A stretch of 64,000 nucleotides of DNA. Source: Pseudomonadota bacterium. Its GTDB lineage: Bacteria; Pseudomonadota; Gammaproteobacteria; DASZBR01. Below the pieces are notes generated by a model. It searched no databases. It was not told the origin of the DNA and was given only the letters and a program-made list of their open reading frames with translations. A program made the translations under genes and the position numbers. Below, in pieces: positions 21,501 through 38,653 of the stretch. Each line of letters starts with the position of its first letter. The first letter of the stretch is position 1. The DNA lies in assembly GCA_021777765.1 (NCBI GenBank), contig JAJYDF010000001.1, positions 170,495 to 234,494 of the forward strand, in the 5' to 3' direction.

Positions 21501-21936
21501 GATTTTTGTATATTGGCGATGAAAATATAACTGGATTCAAATTTAAATCTGATATGGGTAGTGGAAATATTGAGTAAGGATTAAAAGAGTCAGTAGCTGG
21601 ACTTATAATAAGATAATCTGCGAGGTTTAATAGCAATTCTCTTGGAAGAATCTCAGTATAAAAGCGCGGTAATGTCGACTGCGTTTCAATTATTGTCACT
21701 CGCAATTTATTACTTGGTTGAGCTATCGGCTCTATTTCTTTTTCATCAGCAGGATTATTTTCTGCGGATAAATCTGTCTGTTGATCTTTAGTTGAAGGAT
21801 CGATGGCTTCAGTTGATTGAGCTATTGGCTCTATTTCTTCTTTATCAGCAGCTTTATCTTCTGCGGGTAAATCTGGCTGTTGATCTTTAGGTGTAAGGTC
21901 GAAGGCTTCTGTTGGATCAATCATGAGAGATTCCAT
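18592..21936 (-). CDS. Large (1114 aa) hypothetical effector-like protein with N-terminal tandem repeats
   Basis: Long uninterrupted ORF; N-terminal Pro/Asp/Glu-rich ~35-aa repeat x2; no signal peptide. Confidence 0.55.
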   Translation of the reverse strand: MESLMIDPTEAFDLTPKDQQPDLPAEDKAADKEEIEPIAQSTEAIDPSTKDQQTDLSAENNPADEKEIEPIAQPSNKLRVTIIETQSTLPRFYTEILPRELLLNLADYLIISPATDSFNPYSIFPLPISDLNLNPVIFSSPIYKNHMMEKLLSLPSLLPEFRHKTIQIRNHLRIPDVIVNRDNRPSTSMVIQPQIDDEQSNNKQTNLNDKNKNVDNNLSITNTLPMEPTSSADYFTPSPIDEKLNNTQNNLNTLLMLSYNIASPEAQLAVIEKAFSQQCQHYIDMLRHKQRSIINHREFLELGKILTCDIYQSNFEQIPALEYVVSTNNIKFFDAICSSLMQVIYENSKNKSHQENNKEHDLLSDFFKNYNRFIIIYTKILDIILYQRNAFFMQWIIENLYTYKIDYLTRYIEISLDNNILQKFSADILKNYTTYALDLSYAINAAAIQIPDNKFVTELKVKHGLPSKTQFQRVRKTIMALLFRIMPLYENDSQSSKLKYVISISLNDCESAIDFIFSIRSEVYTAEKKLQDMLLAFIGYTTGQKRVELIQYAMTSYQLLPHSLQLHQFIDFNTLDIILLIYMHIQHDYDQKKLQLFTYLVNEYFRLNNLNNNAEETLKTIIYAGTNGSEYGKIFLNNNQLKIWFENNLTTENAGFYLIAASIRGSFDIVSAILDLQRKSQNFPINRQLYLYTLHAALQKNHSIVCRLLIDSLDFYFVKGSDFYLSISGDSLNFLKLMFNAIKLNHFDIFDLLYQYAKTRELFEKDLDLYIVRVAIIENEIEVILYFLNKMSDRIEHLLTGFKGDPTMEPIFKLHKFLITQPSILKLSFLLDNFELEECINLFINVLKADNIQTIVFPYLTAILTDKFPLVKLKLDKFIHALLDTDRLRDYRPPLITLLNIIQIKYPELVRKYHQKFPGINREATHTNSLDGNSIKLNQFASYLHESNTITFDHHINHWLQEKIDRIASLQDELNELDKEWREKLKKQYFEFADEAHQHGTQDMPQYMRLYQQISSTILNELYQNDADDDESFFPEDMPRTPTERTPSALLLSQHSVFSTSPNFDEDHIAAIALGLYENSEANLHDQEPVSSVASDADTDYLDQESDSSNKLNR
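21717..21920. repeat. Two ~102-bp tandem repeats inside the 5-prime end of the 1114-aa ORF
   Basis: agctatcggctctatttctt... and agctattggctctatttcttc... ~85% identical, adjacent. Confidence 0.75.
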
Positions 21937-25183: not shown

Positions 25184-25276
25184 GTAGCCTGGGTGAAGCC
25201 AAAGAATATATTATTTAATATCGCATATTAAAATTAACCACAAATATCAATTTAATATTTTGGGCGAAACCCGGGA
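25184..25276. repeat. REPIN half-copy (left TIR + spacer + gggcgaaacccggg)
   Basis: gtagcctgggtgaagccaaagaatat...tttgggcgaaacccggg. Confidence 0.8.
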
Positions 25277-26013: not shown

Positions 26014-26106
26014 GTAGCCTGGGTGAAGCCAAAGAATAAATTATTTAATATTTCATATTTAAAATTAACGCCAATATCAATTCAATAATTCGGGCGCAAC
26101 CCGGGA
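26014..26106. repeat. REPIN half-copy, ~88% identical to 25184-25276
   Basis: gtagcctgggtgaagccaaagaataaatt...ttcgggcgcaacccggg. Confidence 0.8.
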
Positions 26107-26140: not shown

Positions 26141-26752
26141 ATGCCGGAAAAAAAACATCTCGTCTCCAAAAAATTCACAATAACAGCCTTATTAGTATTG
26201 TTATTTGCCTGGATAAACACCGCTCTATTAATGGGCGGCATTAACTATTTTCCTCATGTTGTTAAAAACCCATACTACTCCGGTGTCATGTTAGGCACAG
26301 CCACAAAATGGATTGCATTTTCATTCGTTATCACTATTGTCATTAATTTTATTGCTAATTTCTTCAGAAAAGAAAAAAAACCATTTTCATATATCATGGT
26401 ATGGATATTACTAGCGATATTTATTATCGGCACCATGCTAAATATCATGGAAAAATTAGGCATTGAAGAGCCCGCAGCAAGATATAATTTTATTCAAGGT
26501 TGCATTGCTGATGCTAAAGGAAATAAAGAATATCAAGCATTAAATAAATCCGATCAACAAAAAGCGATGTATAAAATCACCGAATATTGCGCAAACATAG
26601 CAGATGGTTATTTCAAAACCTATGATCAATGTATCGTTAAAATCCATGATCCACTCACCTGTAATAAACAATCATTATTCGCACAATGCATGGCCATGAA
26701 AAACAACGTGAAATTTTGCCAATCATTTACAGCGTCGTATTCGATTAAGTAG
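26141..26752 (+). CDS. Hypothetical membrane protein with Cys-rich C-terminal domain
   Basis: Three predicted TM segments then 8 Cys in last 90 aa. Confidence 0.45.
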   Translation: MPEKKHLVSKKFTITALLVLLFAWINTALLMGGINYFPHVVKNPYYSGVMLGTATKWIAFSFVITIVINFIANFFRKEKKPFSYIMVWILLAIFIIGTMLNIMEKLGIEEPAARYNFIQGCIADAKGNKEYQALNKSDQQKAMYKITEYCANIADGYFKTYDQCIVKIHDPLTCNKQSLFAQCMAMKNNVKFCQSFTASYSIK

Positions 26753-26775
26753 AATTGCAAAATTAATATTAAAAT

Positions 26776-26952
26776 GTAGCCTGGGTGAAGCCAAAAGAGA
26801 AAATATTTTATATAACTGAAGTGTGCAAATCTGCTAATCATTATTGAACCACTGGCGAAACCCGGGTTCCGCCAGTGGTATAAATTATTTCATTCGAATC
26901 AGACAGTGCATTATATTAAATTCATTCTTTATTTGGCTGCGCCCAGGCTACA
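26776..26952. repeat. REPIN/MITE-like element, full copy immediately upstream of the RAYT gene
   Basis: gtagcctgggtgaagccaaa...ggcgaaacccgggttccgccagtgg...tttggctgcgcccaggctaca. Confidence 0.85.
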
Positions 26953-27021
26953 TATTAAATGGTTAAACCCGGGAATAAATCATAATTATTTAAATAACAT
27001 AAAAATAAAAAGGAAGATAAT

Positions 27022-27600
27022 ATGGTCAATTATAGAAGAAATTATCAAGAAGGCAGAGTATATTTTTTTACTGTCACCCTCAAGAACAGACAATCAGATC
27101 TTTTAGTGAAACATATTGATTTGATACAAAACGCTATTCGTGATGTTAAATCAACTATGACATTTAAAACTATTGCTACTGTCATATTACCAGATCATAT
27201 TCACGCATTATGGCAATTACCCATTCATGATTCAGACTATTCAGGTCGTTGGCGTAGTATTAAAAGCCAATTTACTTTCAGCTTAAATAAAATTGGATAC
27301 CAATTAATAAGGGATAAACGTGGGGAATATTGCTTATGGCAAAGGCGGTTTTGGGAACATACAATTAGAAACGATGAAGATTTGCAGAATCATATCAATT
27401 ATATTCATTATAATCCTGTCAAACACGGATTGGTGAAAAGAGTTGTTGATTGGCCTTATTCTACTTTTCATCATTATGTTAAAAAAGGGATATATGAAAG
27501 GGGATATATGAAAGCGATTGGTTTACTGATTTATCACAAAATGAAAATGTTTTTGGATAGTAAAATGAATTTAATAGTTGGTTGTATTATGCAATGTTAA
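27022..27600 (+). mobile_element. REP-associated tyrosine transposase (RAYT; IS200/IS605 Y1 transposase family)
   Basis: HuH motif ILPDHIHALWQLP and catalytic Tyr motif YIHYNPVKHGLV; N-terminus MVNYRRNYQEGRVYFFTVT typical of TnpA_REP; flanked by REPIN copies. Confidence 0.8.
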
Positions 27601-27657
27601 TAATATGAAATATGAGTAGTAATGACATTAATGTTAAATGGTAAATATGAAGGCATG

Positions 27658-27752
27658 TTTCCCGGATTACGCCAGCAGCTTTATCTTGTTCACTCTTAAT
27701 GCGAATATCAACGTTTAAATATAATGCATAATCTGGCTTCATCCAGGCTACA
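27658..27752. repeat. REPIN half-copy (right half) just downstream of RAYT
   Basis: tttcccggattacgcc...ggcttcatccaggctaca. Confidence 0.8.
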
Positions 27753-27802
27753 ATTTACTGCGTCGAATTCAATGAGACTATTATTGAAGGAAGATTAATG
27801 CA

Positions 27803-28141
27803 TTAAGTGTATTTTTTTAAATCTAGTCTCATGATATTTATTAATTTATCTCTTGTTTCTACAGTGTTCGGATGAGTAAAGAGTTTATTGCTCAAGGAGA
27901 TAATTTCATCTGTTGCTATTAATTCTATTTGCTTTTGACAAGATACGACATTTTGTTTTGCTTGTATCGACGGATCGGCAACACATTCTTGATAAGCTTC
28001 AATTAGATTTGAATATTTGATTAATTTTGACTTAAATAAAAGTGTTTTAAGTTCACGATTGGTTCTAAGCCATTCTGAAAAAATTGTTCCGATTCCAATT
28101 CCACCGATTAAAGGCATTACAATCGACAGTATCGCGTTCAT
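27803..28141 (-). CDS. Small hypothetical membrane-anchored protein
   Basis: N-terminal hydrophobic helix; no family recognised. Confidence 0.4.
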   Translation of the reverse strand: MNAILSIVMPLIGGIGIGTIFSEWLRTNRELKTLLFKSKLIKYSNLIEAYQECVADPSIQAKQNVVSCQKQIELIATDEIISLSNKLFTHPNTVETRDKLINIMRLDLKKYT

Positions 28142-28194
28142 ATTAATTCCTTTTTACTTATGAAATTAAAATATCTGCTAATACGCTGTCTAAA

Positions 28195-28506
28195 TTACAA
28201 GATGAAGCCAAGATATTTTAATAAAAGTCCAATAGTTTGTAATTCATGATTCACTTTATCAAATAAGGTTTTATAAAGACTTTGACGATTCAGTTTTTTT
28301 TGATAATTGCGAGATGCCACCTAGTGCTTCTGCGACATTACATATCGCGATCTTTTAGGGCTGCAACATCTCCATCTTCCTGATATTTATCTAGTGTGAC
28401 CTGCAAATAAGCAGATGCTCGTTTTTTGTTGCGTAATTCGCTTAAAAGATATTCTCTGTAATAACTGGTTTGTTGTAAAATTTTATTAATGTTCATCAAT
28501 CGTCTC
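28195..28506 (-). pseudogene. Frameshifted HigA-family (addiction-module antidote, HTH) antitoxin remnant
   Basis: Three consecutive frames give MNINKILQQTSYYREYLLSELRNKKRASAYLQVTLDKYQEDGDVAALKDRDM* / IAICNVAEALGGISQLSKKTESSKSL* / QSLYKTLFDKVNHELQTIGLLLKYLGFIL*, together colinear with ~100-aa addiction-module antidote proteins. Confidence 0.55.
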
Positions 28507-28599
28507 CGTTAGATTAAGCTAATAATTTGATAATCTCTGTAATTACCTAGTGTCAATTGGCTCTGGTAACAATTAATTTGTGATCAAGTTGTTGTAGAT

Positions 28600-28794
28600 G
28601 TAGCCTGGGTGGAGCAATTGATGAAGTTATTTATTTGTTAGAATGGCGATTTATGAATAATTACTATTAGAAACTAAGGCGCAACCCGGGAATTTATATT
28701 TCCTGGGTTACGCCATTGATAAAAAATATTTTATTGTAAACTTCAGGAATTGTAGTTCTTTCATACATCTTCATTTGCTCTACCCAGGCTATAT
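28600..28794. repeat. REPIN/MITE-like element, full copy
   Basis: gtagcctgggtggagcaattga...ggcgcaacccgggaatttatatttcctgggttacgcc...tcatttgctctacccaggctata. Confidence 0.85.
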
Positions 28795-28941
28795 GTTTAT
28801 GAGTATTGCATTATTAAAACGCATAATACGTTAGCTTGTAATAAACAATCAATATTTATTCAATACATACCCTTGAAAAGAAACTAAAAGCTTTGCCAAT
28901 CATTTACAGCGTTTTATTCTGCTCAATAATGTATATCATTG

Positions 28942-30375: not shown

Positions 30376-30485
30376 GTAGCCTGGGTGAAGCCAAACGATG
30401 AATTTGTAATGTGCAAGTCATCTTTTCATCAGTAATTATCATATTAATTTTGATGGCGAAACCCGGGGATCATTATTCCCGATAC
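30376..30485. repeat. REPIN half-copy between pilQ and lpxH
   Basis: gtagcctgggtgaagccaaacgatg...ggcgaaacccgggg. Confidence 0.8.
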
Positions 30486-31805: not shown

Positions 31806-31879
31806 ATCCCGGGTTTCGCCTGAGAATTTAAATAATTTTTTTGAGTTACATAATTTATTAATATTAACAATTTTTTCAT
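31806..31879. repeat. REPIN half-copy (right half) between pilO and pilP
   Basis: atcccgggtttcgcc...tttggctgcacccaggctacg. Confidence 0.8.
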
Positions 31880-31894
31880 TTGGCTGCACCCAGG

Positions 31895-32503
31895 CTACGA
31901 TAGTATGTAAACATTGATAGTCATGCTCATCACTAATTTATCTGCATTAGTTGGTGTGCTATCCATTGCAGTGCTTAATGCCGCATTGGCATGGCTCAAG
32001 TTAAATTCTGGTATTGTCATTAATGTTTTCATTTGACTCAGTAAATTCATAAAATTAATTAATTGTGGGTAATTGCCTGTTATTGTTATTTCTATTGGTA
32101 AAATTGAATAAAATGATTGTTTATTTAATGTTTGAGGCTTTATTGAATTAAATTGAATGCCGGCAGATTGACCTGCTTGTAAAATAGTATTAATGATAGA
32201 TTGATTATCAGTATCGGTAGAAATTTGTTGATGGAGGTCATTAGATTGTTTTTGCAATTGTAATAAATCTGAACGTTGTTGATTGAAAGCAGCAGTTTGT
32301 TGTGTTAATTGATCGATTTGTTGTTGTAATTGTTGATGACTATTGCGCTCTGTTATTAATTCTTTTTGCAATGCTCGAATATCATACCAGTAACCAATCA
32401 TAAAGATGCTCAAAAAGATAATCCCTGCATAAATCATTTTTTTAACCGCAGATTCTTTATGATTATCAGAAAAAGCCACTGCTTCGAATAAAAACTTTGA
32501 CAT
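31895..32503 (-). CDS. pilO: Type IV pilus assembly protein PilO
   Basis: Size, single N-terminal TM, coiled-coil, operon position. Confidence 0.75.
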   Translation of the reverse strand: MSKFLFEAVAFSDNHKESAVKKMIYAGIIFLSIFMIGYWYDIRALQKELITERNSHQQLQQQIDQLTQQTAAFNQQRSDLLQLQKQSNDLHQQISTDTDNQSIINTILQAGQSAGIQFNSIKPQTLNKQSFYSILPIEITITGNYPQLINFMNLLSQMKTLMTIPEFNLSHANAALSTAMDSTPTNADKLVMSMTINVYILS

Positions 32504-34117: not shown

Positions 34118-34294
34118 GTAGCCTGGGTGCAACCAAATAAATAAACCAATTAAATATATTGAATTATGTTTTACTAATAAAACGATTATATAATCTGGTG
34201 AAACCCGGGTTCCGCCAGTAATCTTTATAATTTAATTCGTATCGGAAATTCATACTATTTTATTAAATTTTTATTTGGCTGCACCCAGGCTACG
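34118..34294. repeat. REPIN/MITE-like element, full copy in the pilM-mrcA divergent region
   Basis: gtagcctgggtgcaaccaaataa...ggtgaaacccgggttccgccagtaatc...tttggctgcacccaggctacg. Confidence 0.85.
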
Positions 34295-38132: not shown

Positions 38133-38513
38133 ATGAAACTCTATATCTCGCATTCAACCGCTTTTGATTACATCAATCAGCTATATCTTCCATTAAAAAA
38201 ATCTGATTTATATGTGCATCATCAAATTATTTTACCGCATGATAATTCACCACAACCCAGCAATTCAAAAGAATTAATTGCTAATTGTGATTTAATCATT
38301 GCCGAAGTTTCATATCCTTCAACAGGACAAGGGATTGAACTGGGTTGGGCTGATGATTTAAATATCTCTATTTATGCAATTTATAGAGAGGGATTTAAAT
38401 ATTCATCAAGTTTGAATTTGATTGCAAAGGCGATTGATTGCTATCGAAATGAAAACCAATTGCTTGATGTTGTTTCGCGCATAATAGTATGTAGCCTGGA
38501 TGGAAGCAAATGA
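38133..38513 (+). CDS. Nucleoside 2-deoxyribosyltransferase-like protein (stop codon lies inside REPIN TIR)
   Basis: …CDLIIAEVSYPSTGQGIELGWA… resembles the D-x-G-x-x-F-E-L-G-Y-A active-site region; last codons tgtagcctggatggaagcaaaTGA are the REPIN terminus. Confidence 0.45.
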   Translation: MKLYISHSTAFDYINQLYLPLKKSDLYVHHQIILPHDNSPQPSNSKELIANCDLIIAEVSYPSTGQGIELGWADDLNISIYAIYREGFKYSSSLNLIAKAIDCYRNENQLLDVVSRIIVCSLDGSK

Positions 38514-38653
38514 AAAAATTATTTAAATATTGAGAAATGACATATGCATCTTAATTATTTCTTACACTGCTGAAATCCGGGAAATCAATTTTAATCCCGG
38601 GTTTCGCCTTTAGTATTAAATAATAATTTTCAATCGGCTTCACCCAGGTTGCG
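38491..38653. repeat. REPIN/MITE-like element, full (short) copy
   Basis: gtagcctggatggaagcaaatga...gaaatccgggaaatcaattttaatcccgggtttcgcc...ggcttcacccaggttgcg. Confidence 0.8.

Follow-up and report, generated by a model that had tools for sequence, protein, structure and literature searches.

REP-associated tyrosine transposases, known as RAYTs, are by definition always flanked by two inverted repetitive extragenic palindromes (REPs) (Nunvar 2010, PMC2817692). In Escherichia coli the enzyme is TnpA_REP (YafM), which together with the REPs and their bacterial interspersed mosaic elements (BIMEs) makes up the "REPtron" and for which the structure 4ER8 is available (Ton-Hoang 2012, Messing 2012). 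The E. coli RAYT was assigned to Group 2, and Groups 2 and 3, which are inherited vertically, were the only ones seen with abundant repeats (Bertels 2017). A RAYT and its REP are also on record for Coxiella burnetii, listed by Nunvar 2010 (PMC2817692, Table 1) and, within family GTAG-3, by Di Nocera 2013 (PMC3733652). The subject of the present analysis is a stretch of 64,000 nucleotides (contig JAJYDF010000001.1, positions 170,495 to 234,494), called the window throughout, in which a RAYT gene at 27022-27600 lies among 21 copies of a GTAG-headed repeat of about 90 nt. The best explanation, to which a probability of about 0.85 is given, is a chromosomal REP/RAYT system whose REPs carry a long loop. 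It is a system of a known kind, having the sequence features and flanking repeats that define RAYTs and, size excepted, the features that define REPs, but its repeat has a new form and its enzyme is encoded by an unusual allele.

Comparison with the closest described systems brings out both aspects. As in E. coli, the HUH motif, the Tyr and the equivalents of R78 and R97 are kept in the enzyme; the repeat consists of GTAG, a 7-bp stem, an internal loop or bulge and a short upper stem; the two arm types in heterodimers may be likened to the Y and Z units of BIMEs, and clusters of REPs flank both genes. In contrast to E. coli, the unit measures 88-93 nt instead of about 35, with 52-57 nt in place of the tetraloop, K82, which contacts the bulge, is replaced by Ser, the autoinhibitory tail is out of frame, and the host is AT-rich. 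With Pseudomonas fluorescens and the other Group 2/3 REP doublets (REPINs) and their RAYTs (Bertels & Rainey 2011, 2017, 2023) the window shares extragenic inverted doublets that fold as a long hairpin and a RAYT which is apparently single-copy and vertically inherited in the same extragenic space, but its singlets are as frequent as its doublets, no abundant identical "master" doublet is found in the 64 kb, and the REP is about 90 nt long. The RAYTs of Legionella beliardensis and L. pneumophila are 55-58% identical to the window protein and are flanked by a REP (GTAGCCTTGATGCAGCGCAGCGTAATCAAGG) of the same layout, GTAG-CCTNGAT-...-TAATCNNGG; in contrast to the window, with its 21 units in 64 kb, those REPs are 31-34 nt long with a tetraloop and number 2-3 in the 10-20 kb fetched. 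C. burnetii belongs, as the host of the window probably does, to the Legionellales in the wide sense and has a GTAG-headed REP tied to a RAYT, although that REP (GTAGGTTGGGCTGAGCTTGCGAAGCCCAAC) is 30 nt long and has other arms. The novelty in Legionellales that had been proposed for this locus from its letters alone (the original prediction) is thus not borne out, given the record for C. burnetii and the Legionella RAYTs that are annotated as such and flanked by short REPs. A literature search returned no paper linking "REP-associated tyrosine" with "Legionella", and the matches to "RAYT" plus "Legionella" were noise.

The ORF at 27022-27600 was assigned, based on its sequence, to the REP-associated tyrosine transposases and not to the IS200 TnpA proteins. 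It scored 188.3 bits against the NCBIfam RAYT model NF047646 (cut-off 80) and failed the IS200/IS605 TnpA model NF033573 (18.9 bits, cut-off 55), while Pfam matched it at superfamily level only, to Y1_Tnp ("Transposase IS200 like", 28 bits). The only solved relative was E. coli TnpA_REP (PDB 4ER8, E=7.8e-43 over residues 2-159). Its HMH and DYIYINPVKHG motifs aligned with H59-I-H61 (27196-27204, in the context LPDHIHALW) and with the catalytic Tyr127 (27400-27402, within YIHYNPVKHG, HINYIHYNPVKHG), which confirms the HuH and Tyr motifs originally read in this ORF. The top database relatives have about 175 residues and are at most 67% identical; some of the Legionella proteins are annotated as REP-associated tyrosine transposases. 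By similarity to the E. coli Group 2 protein, rather than by a tree, the enzyme can be called "Group 2"-like in the sense of Bertels. Within the window there is no second RAYT copy and no tnpB among the ORFs, and the RAYT gene has no IS-type ends other than the REPs.

The gene is flanked by inverted REPs, with the + unit at 26776 and an orphan + 3' arm (26959-26975) upstream and a - unit (27751-27661) downstream. The same arrangement, upstream + and downstream -, was seen at three related loci (L007, L011 and L012), and in L008 and L011 the 3' arm of a complete upstream REP stands at a similar distance from the ATG as the orphan arm does here. The full copy expected 70 bp upstream of the gene was recovered as the 176-bp element 26776-26951, and the expected downstream half copy as the single inverted unit 27661-27751, 60 bp after the stop.

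Extraction by pattern, from the GTAG head to the inner motif GGCGNAAYCCGGG at a fixed distance, gave 20 units of 88-93 nt. A 21st, truncated, was located at 38594-38653, making a total of 21 units at 14 sites, arranged as seven head-to-head dimers and seven single units. The terminus GTAGCCTGGGTGAAGCCAAA, given before as 21 bp and measured here as 20 nt, had 13 matches at three or fewer mismatches and none in each of 100 shuffles; there are 18 copies of the shorter GTAGCCTGG, and of the window's 13 CCCGGG sites 11 fall within repeat elements. The GTAG head is present in 18 of the 21 units, the exceptions being ATAG (28792), GCAA (38653) and a lost head (3880). The statement that at least 13 more copies exist holds per terminus or unit (about 18 other units) and is slightly high per site (12 others). 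The copies are extragenic, with no coding overlap at 13 of 15 listed features and overlaps of 4 and 23 nt at the remaining two; the neighbouring genes are co-directional or convergent at 13 of the 14 sites and divergent at one, and several copies are found inside the pil operon. The region 25-29 kb holds seven of the 21 units, that is 1.75 per kb versus 0.23 per kb elsewhere in the window, or about 7.5-fold. Together with the flanking units and the 188 bits to NF047646, this local density upholds the central claim that a RAYT gene is bracketed by its own REP/REPIN-type repeats, and nothing of what might have overturned it (an IS200 TnpA score, IS-type ends of its own, repeats not enriched near the gene) was found within the window.

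The original prediction treated a ~180-bp element as one unit. That element is a head-to-head dimer of ~90-nt units, and its "half copy" is a single REP. What had been missed is that the unit is a REP of about 90 nt, a single hairpin with the two conserved motifs as its arms. The consensus structure of 20 units (RNAalifold) comprises an unpaired 5' GTAG, a 7-bp stem (CCTGGRT / AYCCGGG) and, beyond a 3x3 internal loop, two further GC pairs, and a long apical insert, with 69 alignment columns between the upper-stem pairs, stands where the REPs of relatives have a tetraloop. Without the arms the loops are 52-57 nt long with 11-28% GC. Their mean pairwise identity of 0.58 compares with 0.55 ± 0.04 for shuffled loops, and only the pair 25184/26014 stands out (0.84); loop length is conserved, within the window and across relatives, and loop sequence is not. 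Two arm types, CCTGGGT/ACCCGGG and CCTGGAT/ATCCGGG, combine freely in dimers. The base pairs between the arms covary, the pairing being kept by compensatory changes: at pair 10/92, 14 units have GC and six have AU, pair 15/87 is GC in 15, AU in four and GU in one, and pair 16/86 is CG in 17 and GC in three. Over the nine pairs 98.3% of cells are paired, and three pairs have changed on both sides; none of 500 shuffles reached this pairing or the covariation score, and sliding the partner by 1-3 columns reduced pairing to 14-63%.

The REPs next to RAYT genes in relatives place this fold. In L. beliardensis (L007) and L. pneumophila (L012) the gene is flanked, upstream + and downstream -, by GTAGCCTTGATGCAGCG(C/A)AGCGTAATCAAGG, while L006 (42% GC) has the short REP GTAGCCCGGGTGGAGCGCTAGCGAAACCCGGG and L010 a different one. 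The 31-34-nt REPs of relatives fold as GTAG, 7 bp, a 3x3 loop, 2 bp and a tetraloop, and the E. coli REP as GTAG, 7 bp, a 2x2 loop, 4 bp and a tetraloop; except for the tetraloop, the dot-bracket pattern of the window units is that of the relatives' short REPs. Consequently the "terminus" and "central palindrome" of the original prediction are both arms of a single stem, that of a canonical REP. The central palindrome was also considered as the true REP and was rejected: single units hold half of it, yet have both motifs at fixed spacing, and the two motifs are adjacent arms in the short REPs of relatives. Long loops also occur at L008/L009 and L011 (each at 31-33% GC), whose RAYTs, with 67% identity, are the closest two; REPs of 88-90 nt, including a G:C/A:T heterodimer, are found next to them. 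The architecture resembles the "GTAG-3" family of Di Nocera. In that survey REPs are of 20-40 bp with loops of 2-20 nt, inner loop regions reach at most 27 bp in one family, and units with odd loops were discarded (Di Nocera 2013, PMC3733652), so the units of 88-93 nt fall outside it. The element seemingly works like a REP and descends from one, yet it lies outside the size definition.

In the dimers GTAG points outward and the bodies face each other (head to head in the sense of Di Nocera), and the total length is 176-195 bp; partners are separated by 0-16 nt or, at 26776-26951 and 34118-34293, overlap at the central CCCGGG. A single long hairpin is the predicted fold of the dimers (-27 to -39 kcal/mol, z=-4.6 to -7.7; for 26776-26951, -38.8 kcal/mol and z=-7.7), in which the outer arms pair with each other and the inner arms form the central stem. 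A dimer could possibly adopt both this fold and the within-unit folds. In heterodimers the covarying position of the long hairpin is taken up by a G·T pair and by a C·A mismatch, so that within-unit pairing is mildly favoured. The dimer is the equivalent of a REPIN or BIME. In REPIN populations doublets predominate, whereas here singlets are as frequent (7 versus 7 in the 64 kb). Dimer partners are 0.64-0.75 identical against a mean of 0.67 for random pairs, the best dimer pair being about 75-81%, and since partners are no more alike than random units it is not claimed that the doublet is the replicating unit.

The history of the locus was followed in related contigs, of which L084 (Logan SRR33619811) is the nearest relative found and L085 and L008 are a more distant pair. 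Identity to the window was 98% (L084) and 94% (L085) for RecA, 85% (L084), 81% (L085) and 80% (L008) for DnaQ, and 78%, 62.5% and 61%, in the same order, for the membrane protein encoded downstream of dnaQ. The order dnaQ, membrane-protein gene, REPs, RAYT is common to the window, L008 and, as far as its contig reaches (at least the first REP), L085. There is one RAYT copy in the 64 kb, at a chromosomal locus shared with L008 and L085. Most likely the RAYT has been inherited vertically at this place downstream of dnaQ and the membrane-protein gene. At the dnaQ/membrane-gene site, where all four lineages have a REP, 23 of 33 arm positions of the REP are invariant as against eight of 61 loop and flanking columns; this supports the view that the arms would be under selection while the loop diverges. 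The REP at 25184 is missing from L084 and L085 and is closest to that at 26014, 830 bp away, and therefore represents a local duplication specific to the lineage of the window.

In L084 the stop of the membrane-protein gene is 23 nt from pilQ, and a 2.05-kb stretch (26743-28797) is missing. This cassette, bounded at either end by a REP dimer, contains the RAYT, a single REP, ORF112 and what may be a broken HigA-like antitoxin gene, and is flanked by direct repeats of ~125 bp (26621-26745 and 28798-28925), of which L084 has one copy (2700-2860). Most simply, the ancestor had the cassette and L084 lost it when the direct repeats recombined, a direction suggested by L008 having the REPs and the RAYT, and L085 at least the first REP, downstream of the same membrane-protein gene. 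The alternative origin of this layout would be a Campbell-style integration. In total L084 is without two of three comparable REPs (25184 and 30376) and the whole cassette. The putative antitoxin remnant consists of two short ORFs (53 and 41 aa) at 28195-28499 (-), like pieces of a broken "addiction module antidote" gene (Pfam dnstrm_HI1420, E=0.007, under the cut-off), adjoining the 112-aa ORF 27803-28141.

The C-terminal end of the RAYT is unusual. Its homologues end in ...G(I/V)(L/Y)xxDWxxxxxxxxxFG(E), an ending that the window ORF does not have. A 14-nt tandem duplication (GGGATATATGAAAG) puts the RAYT-specific extension of ~25 residues out of frame, with 34 unrelated residues encoded instead. 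When one copy was removed in silico, a 174-aa ORF with a homologue-like ending (...KKGIYESDWFTDLSQNENVFG) was obtained, the extension ...DWFTDLSQNENVFG being restored, and the ancestral stop is the TAG at 27558-27560. Alignment of the repaired ORF with 4ER8 extends to residue 155, and the score rises from 149.9 to 159.3 bits. The duplication is not a read error, because the frameshifted allele is on 13 contigs, and in four fetched loci, from four samples, identity to the window is 100%. The frame breaks at the equivalent of about residue 147 of the E. coli protein, and the catalytic domain is thus whole and the regulatory tail alone is lost. In E. coli the ~25-residue extension sits in the active site, and removal of everything after G152 raised cleavage with strand transfer kept (Messing 2012, PMC3479197). 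Given that the conserved tail has been replaced, the enzyme would be either de-repressed or heading to decay; by analogy with E. coli, loss of the tail may de-repress rather than kill it. The allele thus has its laboratory parallel in the truncated enzyme with raised cleavage in vitro.

Based on work with the E. coli enzyme, the HUH/Tyr protein would bind its REP as folded single-stranded DNA, making contact with the GTAG head, the stem foot and the internal loop, and by cutting and rejoining nearby it could bring about slow duplication or rearrangement of REPs. The apex of the hairpin is presumably not read, and a large apical insert would therefore be tolerable. Several points weigh against a long-loop REP/RAYT system of this kind. 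Binding and cleavage of a 90-nt REP by the window RAYT are predicted by analogy, and K82, a DNA-contact residue in E. coli, is Ser here, so that the details of recognition must differ. Single units fold weakly as single-stranded DNA (-5.5 to -11.7 kcal/mol, z=-2.0 to +0.1), the stem that closes them having a large loop to span, although the arm-arm stem is closed in the minimum-energy fold of every one; in the long hairpin that competes in dimers, GTAG is paired with CTAC. As to the covariation, its main case, G:C versus A:T, could reflect few events, or predate the loop insert, as both arm types also occur as short REPs elsewhere. The frameshift might inactivate the RAYT and not de-repress it. 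No two units are near-identical (the best pair, 25184/26014, is at 88%) and the commonest 20-mer head is found in five of 20 units, a low master fraction which by quasispecies reasoning suggests very low or no current duplication. Finally, the copy numbers of repeat and RAYT come from 64 kb only. Of the "active or recently active" system originally proposed, one lineage-specific REP gain can be cited in favour, while the lack of near-identical copies, the near-random loops and the frameshifted tail leave that claim weakly supported. Most likely the REP population is old, with arms kept and loops randomised, and its turnover slow, with one lineage-specific gain found.

The same observations could be taken to mean that the frameshift inactivated the RAYT and that the REPs are relics that no longer move, either decaying or kept by the host as transcript ends, for mRNA stability or as nucleoid-protein sites. 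We regard this as possible but doubtful. The frameshifted tail, the absence of near-identical copies with loop identity at random level, the low fraction of master sequence, the degenerate units (3791-3880, 38594-38653 and 28792) and the complete loss of the RAYT from the closest relative would all agree with it, and there is a precedent in Neisseria gonorrhoeae, in which a Group 2 RAYT is frameshifted and its REPINs are decaying (Bertels & Rainey preprint). Here, in contrast to N. gonorrhoeae, the frameshift spares the whole catalytic domain, the core of 158 residues being intact with all its motifs, and removes only the tail, the very part whose deletion raises cleavage in E. coli; the arms are still conserved and covarying, and the REP at 25184 was gained after the split from L084. 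A different view of the insert itself, which we consider unlikely, is that its 52-57 nt are a functional spacer, for example one that a nucleoid protein bends or wraps and that brings the arms together in duplex or extruded DNA, and that with a tail-less, possibly de-repressed RAYT they form a distinct mechanistic subtype. The thought arises because the length is held within about 5 nt in at least three species-level lineages while the sequence drifts; if it were true, the mode of recognition in this clade of RAYTs would differ from that of the compact single-stranded hairpin of E. coli.

Two further explanations would take the repeats away from the RAYT family altogether, and both are very improbable. 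An autonomous IS200/IS605 insertion sequence, with the repeats as miniature inverted-repeat transposable elements (MITEs) derived from its ends, would suit the placing of the ORF in Y1_Tnp by Pfam and the inverted hairpin-forming repeats around the gene, like IS ends. It is contradicted by the gap between 18.9 bits for the IS200 equivalog model (cut-off 55) and 188 bits for the RAYT model, by a single copy in 64 kb without tnpB, by the conservation of the chromosomal position in a lineage at only 67% protein identity, and by flanks that are ordinary members of a dispersed REP family. Equally little credit is due to a MITE with terminal inverted repeats that is moved by a DDE transposase encoded elsewhere and lies next to the RAYT by coincidence. 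The length of 176-195 bp, the terminal inverted repeats and the AT-rich interior look like such an element, but the six complete dimers show no consistent target-site duplication, half elements are as common as full ones and have both ends conserved, and dimers of two arm types occur. Moreover, GTAG stands at the head of the termini, REPs beside RAYT homologues in other genera have homologous arms, and the elements are about 7.5-fold enriched near the gene.

A long-loop REP/RAYT system would not overturn the current understanding of REP/RAYT systems. It does suggest that surveys which seek 20-40-bp palindromes with loops of a few bases and discard odd loops have probably under-counted long-loop families. 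A clade of RAYTs can keep a REP with its arms about 70 nt apart, and several more such families were obtained from a metagenome scan. The locus also offers a natural experiment on what the enzyme reads, with head, foot of the stem and internal loop conserved and the apex free, which fits our reading of the E. coli co-crystal, and the RAYT-less sister lineage L084 provides a comparison for the fate of REPs once the enzyme is gone. The features of the window are collected in Table 1.

Table 1. Coordinates of the RAYT gene, REP units and related features in the window
Feature	Position	Strand	Remarks
REP heterodimer, head to head, G:C + A:T type	475..660	.	6-nt spacer; fold z=-5.5
Degenerate REP	3791..3880	-	GTAGCC head gone; both arms recognisable
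REP heterodimer, head to head, A:T + G:C type	13139..13323	.	fold z=-4.6
REP heterodimer, head to head, G:C + A:T type	15235..15429	.	12-nt spacer
Single REP	25184..25275	+	rnhA/dnaQ gap; not in L084, L085; 88% identical to unit 26014
Single REP	26014..26105	+	between dnaQ and membrane-protein gene; orthologous REP in all four related lineages
REP dimer, head to head (REPIN-like)	26776..26951		units 26776-26866 (+) and 26951-26861 (-); 176 bp, common central CCCGGG; ends 70 bp before RAYT ATG
Orphan REP 3' arm GGTTAAACCCGGGAAT	26959..26975	+	46 nt before RAYT ATG
RAYT ORF	27022..27600	+	192 aa as now read; core residues 1 to about 158 intact; NF047646, Y1_Tnp and 4ER8 matches
14-nt tandem duplication GGGATATATGAAAG x2	27487..27514	+	perfect; copies 27487-27500 and 27501-27514; shifts frame of RAYT tail
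Single REP, A:T type	27661..27751	-	60 bp after RAYT stop; inverted relative to upstream + unit
REP dimer, head to head	28600..28792	.	closes ~2-kb RAYT cassette; right unit ATAG for GTAG
Degenerate second copy of last ~125 nt of membrane-protein gene	28798..28925	+	in-frame stop; first copy 26621-26745
Single REP	30376..30467	+	between pilQ and metallophosphoesterase gene; not in L084
Single REP	31808..31898	-	within pil operon
REP dimer, head to head	34118..34293	.	176 bp; overlapping-centre form as in 26776-26951
REP unit (+) joined to truncated degenerate inverted partner	38491..38653	.	partner with short loop, GCAA for GTAG
Single REP	56672..56763	-	pattern extraction

The window has a GC content of 33.7%, and its source was traced to MAG GCA_027437415.1 and several ENA and Logan assemblies. 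RecA was 80-81% identical to that of Legionella species and 78-85% to that of gammaproteobacterial metagenome-assembled genomes (MAGs), and based on the RecA and RAYT matches it is reasonable to call the host "Legionellales-like", an AT-rich uncultured relative of Legionella. Around the RAYT genes of L. beliardensis and L. pneumophila, the 10-20 kb fetched hold no REPs beyond the 2-3 that flank the gene, and a RAYT may be maintained in these species with a very small number of REPs, unlike the density in the window.

At the edges of the units, 19 of 20 have a pyrimidine just 5' of GTAG, mostly as AT and sometimes as TC or CT, and single units usually continue after CCGGG with AAWC or ATC. These bases may be part of the element or reflect a preference in cleavage or target. 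A CT cleavage dinucleotide beside GTAG was considered, but the signal was too weak to interpret.

Relatives of the repeat were sought more widely. A scan of 185,579 species-representative genomes (the source species not among them) with GTAGCCTGGGTGMAGCCAAA returned one chance match, in an Acidobacteriaceae MAG. In a metagenome scan for the head, 55-80 nt and the 3' arm, none of the 71 loci belonged to the AT-rich family of the window, most being short-REP dimers or other expanded-loop families. More than 20 JGI metagenome contigs had a unit of 103-104 nt with the REP arms GTAGCCTGGATG.AGCGAAGCG ... TAATCCGGG around an insert of ~73 nt (L024, L027, L032, L034, L041, L043, L044, L049, L050, L052, L057, L061, L062, L064, L065, L070, L071, L075, L077, L080 and L081; also L066 and L076). 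This insert contains several short inverted repeats, both sides of which change together between contigs. Other expanded-loop variants, of 83-100 nt, were present in L018/L019/L058, L025/L053, L038/L073/L079, L051/L072 and L022/L031/L035/L082. Rfam gave no match for the 103-104-nt unit and none at gathering scores for five of the metagenome loci or for the window, in which no tRNAs were found either. Expanded-loop GTAG REPs may be a wider unrecorded class that surveys overlook.

A second, unrelated repeat family (TTTTCCTTCTCCCGCTTGCGGGAGAAGG) in the window consists of a GC hairpin between runs of A and T, like a bidirectional terminator, and is often followed by TGCCTTCGGTAGATGAGGGTGG. Its members are at 5770, 22588, 23792, 36902, 58501, 58597 and 59626, with a dimer at 58492-58635, and in L084 a hairpin of this family lies between rnhA and dnaQ, at the exact site of the GTAG REP 25184 of the window. 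An intergenic region of 830 nt (62246-62944) has three repeats of ~84 nt built on ACTCTGAAGTAACTCTGAAG and inverted CTTCAGAGT, which look like clustered protein-binding sites. Two tandem 99-nt repeats (21714-21911), 85% identical to each other, are located inside 18592-21924 (-), which is called a gene of 1110 residues on L001.

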